64,000 nt of DNA, taken from the sequence record PQ341120.1; one strand, 5' to 3'. A model generated the notes under the pieces. The model worked only from the letters and a program-made list of their open reading frames with translations, did not search any database and was not told where the DNA came from. Shown here piece by piece: positions 7,667 to 62,589 of this stretch (within the stretch, counting starts at the first letter, position 1; the number at the start of each line of letters is the position of its first letter). This DNA is from Escherichia phage EAWsc9. A program made the translations under genes and the position numbers.

Positions 7667-7692
7667 AATCATCTCCAGTAGTTGATAGGTTC

Positions 7693-22886: not shown

Positions 22887-22930
22887 TTTATTATCCTCAT
22901 CAGTAGTTGATAGGAACATCTTAACGTGTC

Positions 22931-26480: not shown

Positions 26481-26506
26481 ATGGAATAATATTCACATTA
26501 TTCCAT
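26481..26506. terminator. Perfect 10-bp AT-rich hairpin (ATGGAATAAT-loop-ATTATTCCAT)
   Basis: Inverted repeat directly after plus-strand ORF stop, between convergent 56 and plus ORF. Confidence 0.4.
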
Positions 26507-26598
26507 CGGATTTGGAAATTAACCAGTAAAAAAGACAAGAAACATCATGGGCTTTTTAGCTCTTGATGTTTTTCTGCGGAACTTACCGGAATTCCTTC

Positions 26599-27627
26599 CT
26601 AAACTTTTGCGTACTTCGAAAGTCGCATTCTCGCCATCAACCCTTGAGCAACGTTATCGGCCATATATGATTCGATTTGTTCAGGGGTTGCGCCCTCCGA
26701 TTTAACCATCTCATTTATGTCTTTCGTATGCCATGGTGCATTGTCCCAGAACATAACGGCTTCACCCGCTTCAACGAGCTTCTTCATACGTTTAATCGTA
26801 TCCGGATGTCTTGGCTCGTTGTCCATTACCCATACTCGGGTTTCAGCATAAGGAACGGCTTCCAATGCTAATGTTCCACCGGTTATCGCAATGCTGTTAG
26901 GGATAAACAAACTATCAATCGGACCTTCCATTACCCACACGCGCTTGCGCTCATCAATCTTGTCTACGCCATAGACTTTGGAAGCTTCTGGGTGAGCTTT
27001 GATTGTGATATATTTTTGTGGTGCATCTTTGCGAAGAGCTCGTCCTTGGAAAGATTCGATTTCTTTTTTGCCGTTGAAGATAGGAATAACCAAGCGTGGT
27101 TCATTCGTTTCATTCTTATACGTCCCAGGATTAACGGAGTTAACTAATGCAGGCCATTTGTTTGTAAACCATAACCGGTTCCAAACATTGCTCGGAATAC
27201 ACCGACTTTTTACATACTTAACTATCGGATGCTCTTCTGGTAAAGTATCGATTCTTTCGCAAAAAGCAAGCTCTTCAATAACCGGAGTTTTTTCTGGTTC
27301 TTTCGGAGCTTCTGCAACTTCATTACGTTGTCGACCGAAAGCATTCTCCTTATACTTCTCAACCATATATTCCCGGTGCAAATCCGGCTCAAACTCTTTT
27401 ATGTATTTGCTTATATGCGTGGAGTAGTCACAGTTAAAACATTTCACGTAAACCGCACCATCAGACGGATTGGTATACGCCCAGAATCGGGCCTTGTGTG
27501 AATCTTTCTGGGAGTCACCACAAACCTTGCAACGACAGTTTGCCTTAAATGTGCTCCCGGTGACTTCTCTATAACGTGGTTGATACGATAAAGCTCTAAC
27601 TGCAAATTCTCTATCAATATATGACAT
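26599..27627 (-). CDS. 61: DNA primase gp61
   Basis: 342 aa; zinc ribbon CRCKVCGDS...CFNCDYS and Toprim-like core; T4 gp61 is 342 aa. Confidence 0.9.
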   Translation of the reverse strand: MSYIDREFAVRALSYQPRYREVTGSTFKANCRCKVCGDSQKDSHKARFWAYTNPSDGAVYVKCFNCDYSTHISKYIKEFEPDLHREYMVEKYKENAFGRQRNEVAEAPKEPEKTPVIEELAFCERIDTLPEEHPIVKYVKSRCIPSNVWNRLWFTNKWPALVNSVNPGTYKNETNEPRLVIPIFNGKKEIESFQGRALRKDAPQKYITIKAHPEASKVYGVDKIDERKRVWVMEGPIDSLFIPNSIAITGGTLALEAVPYAETRVWVMDNEPRHPDTIKRMKKLVEAGEAVMFWDNAPWHTKDINEMVKSEGATPEQIESYMADNVAQGLMARMRLSKYAKV

Positions 27628-27641
27628 AGTTTCCTCATTTC

Positions 27642-27661
27642 AATGGCCCCGAAGGACCATT
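27642..27661 (-). promoter_or_regulatory. UUCG-type hairpin in gene 61 leader, with TATAAT immediately upstream on transcript
   Basis: AATGG(C)CC-CGAA-GGACCATT with one mismatch. Confidence 0.4.
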
Positions 27662-27827
27662 ATACTGTAGGTTTATCGTCTTTATTCTTACGCTTTTTTG
27701 ATGGGATTTGTTCAGGGCCTTTATTGACAACTGCCCCGGAAGTGGTACCTGTTGCGATATTAGTTGGGTTTCCACCTGCATCACCGGCAACCATATCTTC
27801 ATTGATAAAATCTTTGAATGTTTTCAT
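27660..27827 (-). CDS. Hypothetical protein (55 aa), 61.1-position
   Basis: SD AAGGGGGTG; MKTFKDFINEDMVAGDAGGNPTN...; below track cutoff. Confidence 0.45.
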   Translation of the reverse strand: MKTFKDFINEDMVAGDAGGNPTNIATGTTSGAVVNKGPEQIPSKKRKNKDDKPTV

Positions 27828-27846
27828 AACACCCCCTTTCCGCTAT

Positions 27847-28038
27847 TTATACAACGAAGATAGCTTTATCGCCATTTGCATCAGTCACTTCATAGGTGTC
27901 TTCATGATACAACGGAATAATCCAGGTAACACCATCATCAGCGATAACATGGATTGCTTCTTGGTCTTGCGACACGATTTCATATTCTTCAAAAATCTGG
28001 AAGACCGAAATCTTAGAGCCCGTACACATTGCAGTCAT
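27847..28038 (-). CDS. Hypothetical protein (63 aa)
   Basis: ORF in 61.x island. Confidence 0.45.
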   Translation of the reverse strand: MTAMCTGSKISVFQIFEEYEIVSQDQEAIHVIADDGVTWIIPLYHEDTYEVTDANGDKAIFVV

Positions 28039-28039
28039 A

Positions 28040-28408
28040 TTAACCTCGCTTCATGAAAGCATTAAAAATCTGGTCATCAATATCAGTAGGCGGTTCTTGA
28101 GATTTAACCCAGCCAGCATCCAGAATGTCATTTGCTTCAGTAGATAGCATGACCCCAATTTCAGGATTTCCGGTTATCCACGCTGCACAATCGCGTACAT
28201 TCTTTTTATCAAATGGATAGCCACGAGTATCTTCATAAGGCCCATTCATTACCATAAATGAGCGAGCCTTTATGATAACGCCATCTTTAACAATAATATA
28301 ACCAATCGCCTGATTATAACGAGGCTCGCGGAATTCATAATGAGCATTACCATCATTATTTTTAACTAATTCAAAATTCAGATAAGACAAATCGCTTTGA
28401 ATATACAT
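28040..28408 (-). CDS. Hypothetical protein (122 aa) sharing C-terminal tail with next gene
   Basis: Ends DDQIFNAFMKRG; 3' ~45 nt near-identical to 28410..28455. Confidence 0.55.
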   Translation of the reverse strand: MYIQSDLSYLNFELVKNNDGNAHYEFREPRYNQAIGYIIVKDGVIIKARSFMVMNGPYEDTRGYPFDKKNVRDCAAWITGNPEIGVMLSTEANDILDAGWVKSQEPPTDIDDQIFNAFMKRG

Positions 28409-28409
28409 A

Positions 28410-28847
28410 TTAATCTCGCTTCATAAAGGCATTAAAAATTTGGTCGTCAACTGAATATACAGGGGTTTCTAGAAGTTTCAAAAGACTGTTTTTAATGTAC
28501 TTACCCGGGATACCCATATTAACAATACTGTCATTCAATTCATTGTTAGGATTGATGTCTTTAAATTCAAACCCATCAAACTCAACCTTGTCAGGAATAC
28601 CATCAGCGAAAAAATAAACCAATTGGTGCATTGTATTGCGCGAAAATAATTTAGACTTGACTGCAATAAGTTCTTGCCAATGGTTTAATTCTTTGTTAAT
28701 AAGCTTATGAGCAAACGTAATTCTATCATCACTATCAACAAGAAAATAACCCAGGTATTGAATTTCGTCGCTCCAAAACACCCGGTATGCCTGTGCATTT
28801 GGATTTTTACAGCGAAGTTTTTTGATAACTAAATTTCTGTTAATCAT
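28410..28847 (-). CDS. Hypothetical protein (145 aa) sharing C-terminal tail with previous gene
   Basis: ATG at 28847 with SD AGGTGA; ends DDQIFNAFMKRD. Confidence 0.55.
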   Translation of the reverse strand: MINRNLVIKKLRCKNPNAQAYRVFWSDEIQYLGYFLVDSDDRITFAHKLINKELNHWQELIAVKSKLFSRNTMHQLVYFFADGIPDKVEFDGFEFKDINPNNELNDSIVNMGIPGKYIKNSLLKLLETPVYSVDDQIFNAFMKRD

Positions 28848-28848
28848 T

Positions 28849-29142
28849 TTATTCACCTGTAACCCATTGAACAATTTTGCTATTGTCAAATGAAGCATCG
28901 CAATACAGAACATAGTTATACTGCATAACGTCACCAGAAGTCAATTTGTCAGATACTTCTTTAACCATATCAGGGCGGTCACGTTTAGTTATGTTCATAA
29001 TATCAGCATAAATCTGATGTTCAACATCAGTCTGGTCAGCAGTCATAGACCACTCACAAAGGTCTTTATCAAGTCCAGCAGTAACTGGAGCTGTACCACA
29101 TGATGCTACGGTAAGAATTGCTGCAATTAATAACTTTTTCAT
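28849..29142 (-). CDS. sp: Spackle (Sp) periplasmic superinfection-exclusion protein
   Basis: 97 aa; signal peptide then DKDLCEWSMTADQT...DIMNITKRDRP...MQYNYVLYCD matches my recollection of T4 Sp (97 aa). Confidence 0.75.
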   Translation of the reverse strand: MKKLLIAAILTVASCGTAPVTAGLDKDLCEWSMTADQTDVEHQIYADIMNITKRDRPDMVKEVSDKLTSGDVMQYNYVLYCDASFDNSKIVQWVTGE

Positions 29143-29180
29143 TTCAATCTCCTCAGTAGTTGATAGGGATAATATACTGC

Positions 29181-29209
29181 ATTATCCCTTTGATGTACAC
29201 TTATTTTTC
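29181..29209 (-). promoter_or_regulatory. Early promoter (TGTACA-17-GATAAT) upstream of sp
   Basis: Followed by CTATCAACTACTGAGGAG leader. Confidence 0.4.
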
Positions 29210-29542
29210 ACCTTCAACTGAAAAACCGGTCAAGTTGTAATATTCAGCACGTGCAATATGAAGAGCTGCTTCAATATCAGTAAGGCAGATTTCTTCATTT
29301 AACAGTTGCGCTTCAACGGTCAAAATCAGATTACGCAATGCGGTACCCTTACGCATGTCTACTTTATGAATTAGCTTGTCATCAACAAAAGCTTCAACCA
29401 GCGCATTATAGTTATCAGCAGTCTTCTGGACATACCAGTGAATACCTGCGGGGTGGAACATGCTAGAACGTTCAAAAGATGGTACACCAACAGCACTCAC
29501 TTTGATTGTTACTTTTACGCGGTCTTCTGGATTAAAAGCCAT
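29201..29542 (-). CDS. Hypothetical protein (113 aa), Dmd paralog (61.4 position)
   Basis: YNALVEAFVDDKLIHKVDMR parallels Dmd NNALVKAFVNDNKVFEYDYR. Confidence 0.55.
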   Translation of the reverse strand: MAFNPEDRVKVTIKVSAVGVPSFERSSMFHPAGIHWYVQKTADNYNALVEAFVDDKLIHKVDMRKGTALRNLILTVEAQLLNEEICLTDIEAALHIARAEYYNLTGFSVEGEK

Positions 29543-29755
29543 TTAGATTTCCTCAGATAAGTGGATACGATAATCATATTCAAAAACTTTATTGTCATTA
29601 ACAAAGGCTTTCACCAGCGCATTATTCACTTCTGCATACTGCACTGTAACCCATTCAATCATATTTTGGTCACTAACATCTAGTGCAGTTTCTTTGGTAA
29701 ACATATTACCATTTTCAAACCAACCAATAAACACTACTTTCTCTAATTTATGCAT
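29543..29755 (-). CDS. dmd: Dmd-like antitoxin (inhibitor of RnlA/LsoA)
   Basis: 70 aa; KVVFIGWFENGNMFTKE...VQYAEVNNALVKAFVNDNKV resembles T4 Dmd (61.5); located between 41 and 61. Confidence 0.6.
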   Translation of the reverse strand: MHKLEKVVFIGWFENGNMFTKETALDVSDQNMIEWVTVQYAEVNNALVKAFVNDNKVFEYDYRIHLSEEI

Positions 29756-30073
29756 TTAGATTTCCTCACAGAAGGCCCATTCGGCGTGATAAACTGTTGC
29801 GCCTTTAGTATCATTTAAACAAACCACGTCAACAGGTGCAATCACACGATAAAGACGGGGTTCTCCTCCATATGAGCGAGCTGCTCTTCCTGCATAGATA
29901 CGGGCCAAACCAATATCTTCAGTAAAAAACACACGCCCTAAATTTTTCTTGCGCCCAACTTCTGACAGAACACCAGTTGCATCAGGAGGGCAAAGCATAT
30001 TTTGGATTCCAGCATTAGAGCTTGAGCCATGATAATAAACTTTGTATTCCGCCTTGCAATCAATAGTTTTCAT
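29756..30073 (-). CDS. Hypothetical protein (105 aa) with YHGSS motif
   Basis: Own promoter and leader; first gene after the 41 terminator; not recognised as a T4 gene. Confidence 0.55.
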   Translation of the reverse strand: MKTIDCKAEYKVYYHGSSSNAGIQNMLCPPDATGVLSEVGRKKNLGRVFFTEDIGLARIYAGRAARSYGGEPRLYRVIAPVDVVCLNDTKGATVYHAEWAFCEEI

Positions 30074-30092
30074 TTTATTCTCCAGTAGTTGA

Positions 30093-30120
30093 TAGGGTCA
30101 TTATAACATAAGAAAAAGGG
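30093..30120 (-). promoter_or_regulatory. Early promoter (-10 TATAAT) with -35 inside terminator loop
   Basis: TATAAT followed by CCCTATCAACTACTGGAGAA leader. Confidence 0.4.
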
Positions 30121-30130
30121 GCTGTAAGCC
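30105..30130. terminator. Hairpin terminator after gene 41 (AGGGGC-loop-GCCCCT, A/T runs both sides)
   Basis: 6-bp GC stem flanked by AAAAA and TTTT. Confidence 0.55.
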
Positions 30131-30144
30131 CCTTTTAAAATATT

Positions 30145-31584
30145 TTAAAATTTCATTTGAGCAGCAAGGTCGTCCAGGTCGCTCCTGTTGACCCTGGTTT
30201 GTCGATTCATTTCAGCCTGGCGATTCATCTCACCGGTGGCTTCTTTAACCGTAGGGCCTTGTTTAGGAGCCGAATCATCATCAACCTCATACCAGCGCTG
30301 ATTACCTTTCTTAACACCCATCTTGAATTTATTATAGTAGTTTTTATCGCCGTAACGAGACTTAAGCTGTTTGATTAACTGCAGTCCCATTTGAGCGAAT
30401 TCTTCGGTCTCAACAACACCTAACATAAAGTCAGCTGTGTGAGCAATACCAAAGGATTCTGCAATGTCAGCCATATCAATCTCAGCTGCAACGTTCGCGC
30501 CTCTGGTCGTCTGTGCTGCAGTCCACAGGACCACATTTTTCTCGACTGCCAGCCCACGAAGTTCTTCTGCAACCATCTTAATCAGACCGTAACTGTTTTC
30601 GGTAAACGTTTTCAGTCTTGAGCTTGCACAGATTGCCAGGTAGTCAACAATAATCACATCCGGTACAAACCCTTGCTTCAGTTTGTATTCGTTCAGTAAT
30701 GCACGGAAAGTATCCGCATGAGCACCACCAGTTGGATATTGTTTTATCTTCAGAGTCCCAAGAGTCCCAGAAGCACGCCATTTTTCCATCTTAGCTTTAT
30801 ATTCTGCCCATGATATATGACCTTCATCAATATCATCCAGAGACACATCCAGCAAGTTGGCATCAATACGTTTGGCACATACTTCTTCGGCCATTTCCAT
30901 GCTTATATAAAGAACGTTATGACCAGTCTGAAGATAGTCAGCCGCTAACGAACAAAGTCCAAGGGATTTCCCGACGTTGGTCCCGGCCAGTAAAACGTTC
31001 TCTGTGCCGTACTCAACTCCACCTTTCGTAATTTTATTCAGGATGTTAATGCGGAACGGAACTTTCTTCGATTTGTTCAGATAAGTCTGGAATCGAGCCT
31101 CGTAATCGTTTAACCAGTCATGGCCAAGGGCAGAATCAAAACAGATGGACAATGCATCACGCATAATGTCAGGGATAGCACCGATATCCGGGATTCGTTT
31201 ATCACGCTTATCTTTCGGAAGTTCAGCATTACTCTGGATTTCGATAATCCTGGATGTGGCATTGAACATCGCAGACTTCTGTACATACTTCTCGGTTTCT
31301 CTGACCAACCATTCCTGGTCTTCTGGAGTATCGGCCAGGACTCCTAAGAGTTTCTTTGTGCCTTCATATTCGACCTCAGAAAGGTCAGAACTGTCGAGCG
31401 CAATATCAAGTGCAGTTTTAGTTGGTACCGCTTGATATTCTTTTACATGTTCGTTAATCGTATTAAAAAGGGTCTTCGCTGGACCCTTTTCAAAATATGT
31501 GCTATTCAGATATGGCCAGACTTTAACAAAATATTCCTTGTTAAAGAGTAGCTGGGATAAAATAGTTTCTACCACTTCCACCAC
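30145..31584 (-). CDS. 41: Replicative DNA helicase gp41 (DnaB-like)
   Basis: 479 aa; Walker A GTNVGKS, YISMEMAEEVCAKRIDAN, VDYL...; very close to T4 gp41. Confidence 0.95.
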   Translation of the reverse strand: MVEVVETILSQLLFNKEYFVKVWPYLNSTYFEKGPAKTLFNTINEHVKEYQAVPTKTALDIALDSSDLSEVEYEGTKKLLGVLADTPEDQEWLVRETEKYVQKSAMFNATSRIIEIQSNAELPKDKRDKRIPDIGAIPDIMRDALSICFDSALGHDWLNDYEARFQTYLNKSKKVPFRINILNKITKGGVEYGTENVLLAGTNVGKSLGLCSLAADYLQTGHNVLYISMEMAEEVCAKRIDANLLDVSLDDIDEGHISWAEYKAKMEKWRASGTLGTLKIKQYPTGGAHADTFRALLNEYKLKQGFVPDVIIVDYLAICASSRLKTFTENSYGLIKMVAEELRGLAVEKNVVLWTAAQTTRGANVAAEIDMADIAESFGIAHTADFMLGVVETEEFAQMGLQLIKQLKSRYGDKNYYNKFKMGVKKGNQRWYEVDDDSAPKQGPTVKEATGEMNRQAEMNRQTRVNRSDLDDLAAQMKF

Positions 31585-31913
31585 CTCTTTTTCATTTTAA
31601 TCTTATCAATTTCATCTTGTATTTGCATTGTAACACACTTTTCTACATGCACTGCAAGCTCCGCTTTGCGGTCTTCAGAAGGGGTGCCGAAATCAACTGA
31701 AACTTTTCCAGATGGTTCAATTTTAATTCCGGTTACGTACACGATGTGATTGGACCCATCGGGGAGTGATAACAGAATTTCCTGCCGTACAGTTCCCATG
31801 GATTGCCGGATAATCTCCAAACTTTTTTCGTAGTAAGGCACAGAAGGAGCCTTAGCTCCCTCCGCATCTTTCTCGAAATTATCTAAATCAGATAAATCGA
31901 TATCATTCATCAA
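31569..31913 (-). CDS. 40: gp40-position protein (114 aa)
   Basis: ORF between uvsX and 41 as gene 40 in T4; sequence not independently recognised. Confidence 0.5.
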   Translation of the reverse strand: MMNDIDLSDLDNFEKDAEGAKAPSVPYYEKSLEIIRQSMGTVRQEILLSLPDGSNHIVYVTGIKIEPSGKVSVDFGTPSEDRKAELAVHVEKCVTMQIQDEIDKIKMKKRWWKW

Positions 31914-62521: not shown

Positions 62522-62589
62522 GTTCTCCTCAGTAGTTGATGGGATAATAGTACACCCTTTTTATGAGGATGTAAACCCCCTAAATGAAA

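Follow-up and report, generated by a model that had tools for sequence, protein, structure and literature searches.

Phage counter-defence has its main model in the T4-like phages, although no function has been assigned to the majority of the genes in their hyperplastic regions. A 64,000-nucleotide (nt) stretch of the Escherichia phage EAWsc9 (PQ341120.1), hereafter the window, contains such a region between gene 61 and gene 41, where two consecutive minus-strand genes, 28040..28408 and 28410..28847, encode proteins of 122 and 145 amino acids (aa) that both terminate in DDQIFNAFMKR(G/D), followed by TAA, one base and ATG. What is this common ending, and what are the genes of the island in which it is embedded? 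A first-pass annotation had taken the ending as a footprint of recombination at the ends of two otherwise unrelated genes. The joint explanation that we favour, with a probability of about 0.65, is that two promoter/stem-loop (PeSL) cassettes drive an island of translationally coupled host-conflict genes that includes AdfA-type binders and an ADP-ribosyltransferase (ART) enzyme. The first unit, transcribed from a promoter at 30128..30100, would produce first a 105-aa protein with the ART fold of the KptA/Arr branch and an NAD site, putatively an enzyme that counters host defences early on by passing ADP-ribose to a non-protein acceptor or one of some other kind; second, Dmd, which would inhibit RnlA/LsoA toxins; and last, a rare Dmd-derived fusion that may neutralise a variant toxin. 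The second unit, transcribed from a promoter at 29199..29171, would produce Spackle and then two divergent paralogue-like proteins of 145 and 122 aa in the position of adfA, which have different bodies and the amphipathic C-terminal peptide of AdfA, DDQIFNAFM(K/N)R(G/D). These two proteins are candidate toxin binders of the AdfA superfamily, in which the variable body would set the target specificity and the constant tail would serve as a functional docking or effector helix. Moreover, the 45-nt tail together with the stop-N-ATG junction would supply sufficient homology for T4-type recombination, which would account for the duplication and exchange of cassettes here. While the analysis shows the gene identities, the repeat, the selection on the tail peptide, the ART fold with its family links, the promoter cassettes and the variability of the island, we infer the biochemical activities and targets of its proteins.

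The repeat that encodes the common ending is real. Its first copy (28036..28080, minus strand) spans the final 12 codons with their TAA stop, a T and the ATG that opens the following gene, with a GAGG Shine-Dalgarno (SD) motif inside, and its second copy (28406..28450, minus strand) is 89% identical to the first; with 45 nt, this is the longest direct repeat of the interval. The copies differ at 5 nt, four of which are synonymous, and the identity does extend past the stop codon, as had been proposed, but by only 4 nt, up to the next ATG (TAA-T-ATG). The same tail forms the C-terminus of T4 gp61.2, IDDQIFNAFMNRG, whose family is named AdfA (anti-DarT factor A, PF23813) by Pfam, and RB69 AdfA has the same C-terminal ending; the peptide IDDQIFNAFM(N/K)R(G/D) followed by stop-N-ATG, which characterises AdfA, is found here. 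By tblastn, the T4 tail was detected in 712 phage records, many of which carry it at two or more places. A Spackle-based search provided only 7 close loci and a pattern scan of IMG/VR 16 loci. In the collected loci, the tail closes three protein families, namely AdfA with 208-216 aa and two others with 117-122 aa and 145 aa.

Comparison of the tail DNA among these families indicated that the peptide itself is maintained. Among 15 distinct versions of the tail DNA, six sites within the nine core codons (DDQIFNAFM) are variable and require at least seven changes, and all seven are third-position and synonymous (14% expected at random, P ~8.5e-7), while replacements are confined to the residues on either side (I/V, K/N, K/R, G/D). 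Either TAA, TAG or TGA serves as the stop codon after the tail, and the 1-nt spacing to the next ATG is constant. Within families, the bodies fall to 39-72% identity and the tails hold 12-13 of 13 residues. Because the core changes are exclusively synonymous and the tails stay constant while the bodies diverge, the tail peptide is under purifying selection. In the AlphaFold2 (AF2) model of the 122-aa protein, the tail forms a separate helix (residues 108-119, low confidence) behind a low-confidence linker, unpacked on the body, and most likely it is a functional amphipathic C-terminal helix. Recombination is part of the picture, as the first-pass annotation had it, but not the sole explanation of the shared end, since the peptide is selected and is the C-terminus of AdfA; a recombination scar alone was rejected on the grounds of the synonymous-only variation.

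A stricter form of the footprint explanation holds that the tail is the ancestral 3′-end of gene 61.2, a functionless peptide left at the junction of two unrelated insertions and kept for carrying the ribosome-binding site and the coupled start of the next gene. The composition of the repeat, with GAGG, stop, one nucleotide and ATG, is what this explanation requires, and four different genes occur downstream of the same tail junction. It also gains from a duplication at the tails in Yersinia phage phiD1 and from the small homology, less than 50 bp as cited in PMC2839356, with which T4 recombination is satisfied. Furthermore, a second, short common junction occurs at the ends of the 105-aa gene and dmd, where an EEI-stop-ATG junction is reused without a long functional peptide, and this observation weighs against the favoured model. 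However, the ribosome-binding site overlaps only the last three to four codons, whereas the synonymous-only pattern covers all nine core codons; RNAalifold predicted no conserved RNA pairing in the tail junction; tails with 12-13 of 13 residues are attached to bodies that are down to 39% identical; and the structural similarity of the bodies described below speaks against unrelated insertions. We therefore consider a mere junction footprint unlikely, and favour a selected peptide whose DNA also offers a patch for recombination.

The 45-nt patch is about the length needed for T4 recombination (cf. PMC2839356), and the phiD1 locus (NC_027353, 2443-3979) has an arrangement that such a patch would produce. 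There, AdfA is followed by two near-identical genes for tail-bearing proteins of 118 aa, which are separated by a tail-bearing fragment of 33 aa. This arrangement is the expected product of unequal exchange between tails; the stretch has many N bases, and either a tandem duplication by such exchange or a repeat-caused assembly problem could have generated it. If the proposed model is right, the tail would provide a concrete case of a coding repeat that serves as both functional peptide and recombination handle.

As to what the tail-bearing proteins might bind, a two-hybrid assay showed that the RB69 AdfA variant R164H binds DarT1, a DNA ADP-ribosyltransferase toxin, and both binding and neutralisation of DarT1 are known for it (PMC11257639). 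The 122-aa and 145-aa genes occupy the same slot downstream of sp as adfA (61.2) does in T4 and RB69, and they share with it the identical C-terminal peptide, the same stop-N-ATG junction and the recurring motif G-[YF]-I-x-V-K-D-x-x-I; a common fold of the bodies is suggested by the comparisons below. They differ from AdfA in that AdfA is one gene of 208-216 aa, whereas here two genes of 122 and 145 aa are present, both below the Pfam cut-off. The 122-aa protein (phrog_4122, E=1e-49) is predicted to comprise a beta-rich body, a flexible linker and a C-terminal helix, DDQIFNAFMKRG, and the 145-aa protein matches phrog_8539 over its entire length (E=1e-92, 1-145/145). The ATG of the latter lies at 28847, one base past the Spackle stop codon. 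A 174-aa reading of this gene from a GTG start (to 28934) was discarded, as it overlaps sp and the PHROG profile covers exactly 145 aa; some records annotate a version of 162-167 aa.

Whether the two bodies are related was evaluated by sequence and by structure. BLASTP between the 122-aa and 145-aa proteins detects the tail only, and a hairpin motif, G-[YF]-[IF]-x-V-[KD]-[DNS]-x-x-I, is present in all three tail families, twice in AdfA. With the tails removed, hhalign aligned the N-terminal half of AdfA (residues 29-73) with the 122-aa body (29-76) at P=0.003, compared with 0.61 for the reversed control, and the other body pairs gave weak values (P 0.03-0.07). The AF2 model of the 122-aa protein, of medium quality (pLDDT 73), was searched by Foldseek against predicted viral structures, in which the identical tail contributes to the scores. 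After its own family, three matches were notable: one to a protein of 157 aa from a T4-like phage (E 1.4e-4), one to the VR25 member of the 145-aa family (E 2.8e-4, TM 0.59) and one to a protein of 212 aa, which is the length of RB69 AdfA (E 8.9e-4, TM 0.54). Several points weigh against a common origin of the bodies: both proteins miss the Pfam AdfA cut-off and just the tail aligns (the 122-aa protein through residues 109-122, on profile positions 198-211 only, with 20.7 bits against a cut-off of 27, and the 145-aa protein with no match to the ~211-aa profile); the sequence similarity of the bodies is weak and one reversed-sequence control reached P=0.04; the 122-aa model was built on 8 close sequences, with four of five models poor; and the 212-aa match was taken as AdfA from its length alone. 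Since the hhalign values are weak and one control reached 0.04, the body homology rests mainly on Foldseek. Taken together, the predicted structures make it somewhat probable that the two bodies are homologous to each other and to AdfA, in which case the locus probably holds two diverged AdfA-superfamily genes that replace adfA. The description of the two genes as otherwise unrelated is thus probably wrong, given the TM values of 0.54-0.59 and the hhalign P=0.003. A constant tail on a variable body could explain how AdfA-type inhibitors diversify against toxin variants.

Another constituent of the island is the 105-aa product of 29756..30073 (minus strand), which the first-pass annotation had left unassigned, with a YHGSS motif weakly reminiscent of H-Y-E-class ARTs. 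It belongs to phrog_2110, the RB69 ORF040c family, a tight family with 115 clusters at 54-98% identity in a protein search, and is carried by 609 phage records at 60-99% conservation, with hosts in Escherichia, Klebsiella, Acinetobacter, Aeromonas, Vibrio and others; for a small protein found in so many phage genomes, including the model phage RB69, it is unusually conserved. A few GenBank records name the family "putative ADP-ribosyl transferase"; literature searches found nothing on the function of RB69 ORF040c or phrog_2110, and nothing matching "Arr-like" together with phage and ADP-ribosyltransferase. The AF2 model, obtained from a 41-sequence alignment, is confident (pLDDT 86.8, pTM 0.78) and has the split beta-sheet fold of ARTs; Foldseek against PDB placed Arr at the top (probability 1.0, TM 0.58) and Tpt1 second, with pertussis and cholera toxins, ParT and PARPs at lower ranks. 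An exhaustive profile search recovered 244 relatives at E<=1e-3, many of them inside proteins of 250-3,900 aa. Three remote homologues (P0135, P0154 and P0132, E<=1e-25) score 27-29 bits on Pfam Arr-ms (PF12120, cut-off 25), which the 105-aa protein itself does not match at E<=1, and the wider-family profile matches Arr alone in the whole PDB (E 0.0036).

The conserved residues are consistent with this placement. Invariant or nearly so in the family are Y-H15-G16-[ST], P29-P30, E38, R41, N44, F49, T51, D53, Y60 and R63, among which H15, G16, F49 and Y60 are invariant; the strand-1 H-G-[ST] and the strand-2 aromatic residue of the KptA/Arr clade are present. In the alignment to Arr, H15 falls on H19, the invariant F49 on Y49 and V84 on E82, and the alignment ends at residue 82 of 143, leaving the C-terminal third of Arr without an aligned counterpart. 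KptA and Arr are placed in the H-H-h clade, whose members modify small molecules or phosphate groups and have a hydrophobic third position (PMC9503650). The H-F-V pattern fits this clade better than the H-Y-E toxins, and the protein was therefore assigned to the KptA/Arr branch; the earlier suspicion of an ART was borne out for the fold, through the confident model and the Arr profile links, but not for the class. Like Arr and Tpt1/KptA, it has Y-H-G-[ST] on strand 1, an aromatic residue on strand 2 and a hydrophobic third position, and its intermediates reach the Arr-ms cut-off; unlike them, it has Phe for Tyr/His, lacks the aligned Arr C-terminal third and the RNA-binding lobe of Tpt1, has no direct family match and is a phage early gene. 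On these grounds, we regard it as a predicted stand-alone ART-fold protein of this branch that likely binds NAD+ and for which a transfer activity is plausible.

Three points weigh against this view. The 105-aa protein has no direct sequence match in Pfam, NCBIfam or PDB, so that its assignment needed structure prediction and an intermediate-sequence profile; it has Phe at the position of Arr Tyr49; and its residue 84 is Val, in place of the Glu of Arr and the wider family, which makes catalysis uncertain. Position 84 is often acidic in the wider family, but most T4-like members have V, T or Q. Both substitutions would suit a catalytically dead ART fold that binds NAD+ or an immune signal derived from ADP-ribose and so serves as a sponge or decoy, as would the alternation of D82 between D and N and the short length of 105 aa compared with the best-matched chains (Arr 140, AcrF11 137 and Tpt1 179 residues). 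A dead fold is harder to reconcile with the invariance of H-G-[ST], F49 and Y60 and with the highly conserved GRKKNL loop, in which R41, N44 and L45 are invariant; moreover, a hydrophobic third position without a catalytic Glu is typical of the KptA/Arr clade (PMC9503650), and relatives of the protein lie amid the enzymatic domains of polyvalent proteins. We accordingly consider a decoy rather unlikely.

An Arr orthologue that confers rifamycin resistance on the host is extremely improbable. Arr is the sole PDB sequence match of the family profile and the top structural match, but there is no direct Pfam Arr-ms match, the alignment halts at Arr residue 82 of 143, and an early gene of lytic phages that is conserved across many host genera is not what such a role would lead one to expect. 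The resistance role was rejected for the missing counterpart of the Arr C-terminal third.

The company that the ART domain keeps in larger proteins bears on its possible role. It co-occurs with portal, tape-measure-like, 2H/Acb1-like, NUDIX, ART-PolyVal, GNAT and Toprim domains, and such mixes are the architecture of injected "polyvalent" phage proteins (PMC5512222); its presence in these giant proteins suggests an action early in infection. Among four of the fusions (P0157, P0159, P0140 and P0138), one combines a lambda-type portal with a 2H/Acb1-like phosphoesterase, another carries ART-PolyVal and NUDIX, and another, of 3,924 aa, is tape-measure-like. Its pairing with 2H and with NUDIX may mean that the domain makes an ADP-ribose derivative that is processed further. 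A precedent for anti-defence is AcrIF11, a small ART of mobile elements (phage or plasmid) that acts as an anti-CRISPR (PMC11383003); the 105-aa protein, here in the context of a T4-like coliphage, is likened to it as a small phage-borne ART rather than through its sequence. The neighbours of the 105-aa gene differ in Aeromonas phage 31, Klebsiella phage KP15 and Acinetobacter phage Lazarus, and therefore the gene, having no fixed partner, behaves like an early-gene cassette of its own. In Aeromonas phage 31, an annotated 'repeatB' element (2441-2496) precedes the ART homologue, so that even in this distant genus of T4-like phages a repeated regulatory cassette accompanies the gene.

A more specific joint proposal would combine the tail and the ART. 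It views the tail as a portable docking or effector helix of a superfamily (AdfA, the 122-aa and the 145-aa proteins) whose bodies retarget it to DarT-like or other toxins, and the 105-aa protein as an uncharacterised early counter-defence ART of the KptA/Arr clade with a non-protein acceptor such as an RNA or DNA end or a nucleotide signal. We advance it tentatively, with the odds leaning against its holding in full. The less specific two-unit explanation already sets four plausible anti-defence candidates, namely the Dmd-derived fusion, the two AdfA-tail proteins and the miniature ART, beside two proven anti-defence items (Dmd and the AdfA slot), and would, if true, add new anti-defence families. 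A literature search did not find constant-tail/variable-body relatives of AdfA, a Dmd fusion or a conserved miniature ART described.

Dmd (gp61.5 in T4) is a direct inhibitor, or antitoxin, of RnlA/LsoA-type toxins. The product of 29543..29755 (minus strand, 70 aa) scores 75 bits on Pfam PF17587 (cut-off 27; profile positions 3-59 of 60) and has E-values of 5e-23 to the solved RB69 Dmd (PDB 5I8J; a further Dmd structure is 5HY3) and 3e-17 to T4 Dmd, so the resemblance to Dmd noticed at first pass is confirmed above the Pfam cut-off. By sequence, it is a clear member of the Dmd family that differs in a C-terminal extension of 7-10 aa ending in SEEI. This extension relative to T4 Dmd seems to derive from the EEI-stop-ATG junction: the 105-aa gene and dmd both finish with ...EEI, with TAA abutting the next ATG directly. 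This second common gene-end junction (29540-29561 and 29753-29774) comprises 22 nt at 91% identity, GAGGAAATCTAAATG.

The adjacent gene, 29201..29542 (minus strand), encodes 113 aa, in which the reported Dmd-like segment survived formal alignment. BLASTP aligned residues 15-64 with T4 Dmd (E=4e-8) and with the Dmd of the window (E=4e-6), the PHROG Dmd profile was matched at E=9e-6, and a PDB-wide sequence search returned two Dmd entries as the sole matches; a homologue search with the 113-aa protein yielded one cluster. At the DNA level, dmd and the 113-aa gene have in common a 34-nt repeat, 88% identical, that encodes NALV(E/K)AFV(D/N)D. On PF17587, the protein scores 19.1 bits against the cut-off of 27, with profile positions 29-59 only aligned, and because of this sub-cut-off score it was not filed as a Dmd family member. 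The C-terminal half of Dmd (NALV-AFV-DD-K) is retained, and the N-terminal strands less clearly so. A PHROG distinct from that of Dmd is matched by the last 48 residues, and the same module is a free-standing 50-aa open reading frame (ORF) at the equivalent position of ESCO10. With a Dmd-like part and a module that stands alone elsewhere, the gene is therefore a chimera of a Dmd-like domain (~residues 1-65) and a small helical module of 48 aa. The proposed duplication of an antitoxin-type gene thus stands as far as the Dmd similarity goes, but the gene is a fusion with an ESCO10-type module rather than a simple duplicate.

Such a gene might be a functionless remnant of recombination that is decaying. 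It is rare, occurring in 15 of 50,697 phage records, and the chimeric structure and the sub-cut-off Pfam score would also suit decay. On the other hand, the frame is intact in two lineages (VR7/VR25 and EAWsc9) that are only 62% identical, which argues that the gene is maintained by selection, and it is tightly coupled to dmd (TAAATG). Decay is therefore improbable in our view, and a maintained fusion, which may neutralise a variant toxin, would show how an antitoxin mimic can be remodelled.

The expression signals of the island resemble PeSL elements, the promoter/stem-loop cassettes that Arbiol et al. (2010, PMC2839356) described in the hyperplastic regions of T4-type phages and whose recombination has been demonstrated by experiment (PMC2839356, PMC4122927). 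The 105-aa gene is preceded by a PeSL-type cassette (30083..30136, minus strand) with a stem-loop, a promoter and a leader: a GGGG...CCCC hairpin, AAAAGGGGCTTACAGCCCCTTTT, at 30136..30114 holds the -35 box CTTACA in its loop, and the sigma-70-type promoter (10/12) continues with a TG-extended TATAAT 17 bases after the -35 box, ending at 30100. The -10 box is followed by the leader (CCCTATCAACTACTG, 30097..30083; also given as CCCTATCAACTACTGGAGAATAAAATG) and then by the start codon. Upstream of sp, a promoter-like site, TGTACA-17-TATATT, is followed by the leader CCCTATCAACTACTG (29154..29199, minus strand). The leader occurs five times in the window, all on the minus strand, against 0.08 expected, with copies (C)CCTATCAACTACTG at 7676-7690, 22901-22915, 29154-29168, 30083-30097 and 62530-62544, and the five sites align as promoter (GTGTACA/GTTTACA...TATAAT), leader, SD (GGAG) and ATG. 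They appear to mark a family of PeSL-like early-gene cassettes across the window, and the earlier claim that the 105-aa gene has its own promoter and leader holds.

At the sequence level, the cassettes thus have the sigma-70-like promoter, the stable stem-loop, the SD/ATG and the repetition in hyperplastic regions that characterise PeSL elements, including the placement over a GGGG...CCCC stem-loop and the flanking variable ORFs; they differ in that a coding repeat, the tail, adds a second kind of homology patch inside the operon. Since they match PeSL, the island would be composed of two PeSL-headed units, the first with the 105-aa gene, dmd and the 113-aa gene, and the second with sp, the 145-aa, 122-aa and 63-aa genes and 61.1. 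An Rfam scan of 26500-31600 gave sub-threshold matches only; STnc50 and STnc290 matches at 30068-30156 (24-26 bits, cut-offs 55-60) fall on the terminator hairpin and are most likely due to chance.

The window belongs to a Gaprivervirus-type T4-like coliphage, ~95% identical to VR20 and TH15. Across the whole 2.5-kb interval, the Gaprivervirus E. coli myoviruses TH15, TH57, PSD2001 and VR20 are ~95% identical, and pEC-M719-6WT.2 is 98% identical over 86% of it. All genes lie on the minus strand, and the eight ORFs between gene 61 and gene 41 are present exactly where the first-pass annotation had placed them. The flanks are gene 61 (primase, 26599..27627, minus strand), a 342-aa ORF whose homologue is annotated as DNA primase or T4 gp61 in VR20 and VR7, and gene 41 (helicase, 30145..31584, minus strand), identified from its ORF and the annotations of relatives. 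The counterpart interval of T4 contains dmd, 61.4, sp, 61.2 and 61.1, and every relative inspected (VR20, VR7, pEC-M719, ESCO10, T4, RB69 and phiD1) has a gene content unlike that of this phage: VR20 and VR7 have additional 61.4-like genes and a 100-aa ORF adjoining gene 41, pEC-M719 has a 79-aa 61.4-like gene and ESCO10 two small ORFs in place of the 113-aa ORF, and RB69 has imm and imm.1 inserted. As the gene content varies among all seven relatives, the label of a hyperplastic island is justified, and the interval is a variable block of small early genes. Nothing in it is categorically new, the phage and its close relatives having been sequenced before and the kinds of genes being known. 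The GenBank product names of ESCO10 (OM386655) and of UPEC01/UPEC07 look displaced, for instance topoisomerase for a gene of gene-41 size, 'modifier of transcription' for Spackle and 'clamp loader subunit' for the ART homologue, and the annotations there are not to be trusted.

The remaining genes of the second unit have familiar counterparts. Spackle is a periplasmic protein. The sp gene (28849..29142, minus strand; phrog_1586) is identified by a full-length Pfam match (T4_Spackle, PF25676, E=4e-43, 146 bits against a cut-off of 27, positions 1-96 of 96), as the first-pass annotation had supposed, and its N-terminus, MKKLLIAAILTVASC, reads by eye like an export signal. At the end of the unit, the ATG after the first tail junction opens a 63-aa gene of the RB69 ORF033c family (27847..28038, minus strand; phrog_3249, E=1e-33), and a 55-aa homologue of T4 gp61.1 (27660..27827, minus strand; phrog_1823, E=1e-32), which aligns by eye with T4 61.1, comes last. 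Neighbouring genes within each unit are mostly 0-1 nt apart (TAAATG or stop-N-ATG), with the exception of the 55-aa gene, which starts 19 nt beyond the stop codon of the 63-aa gene.

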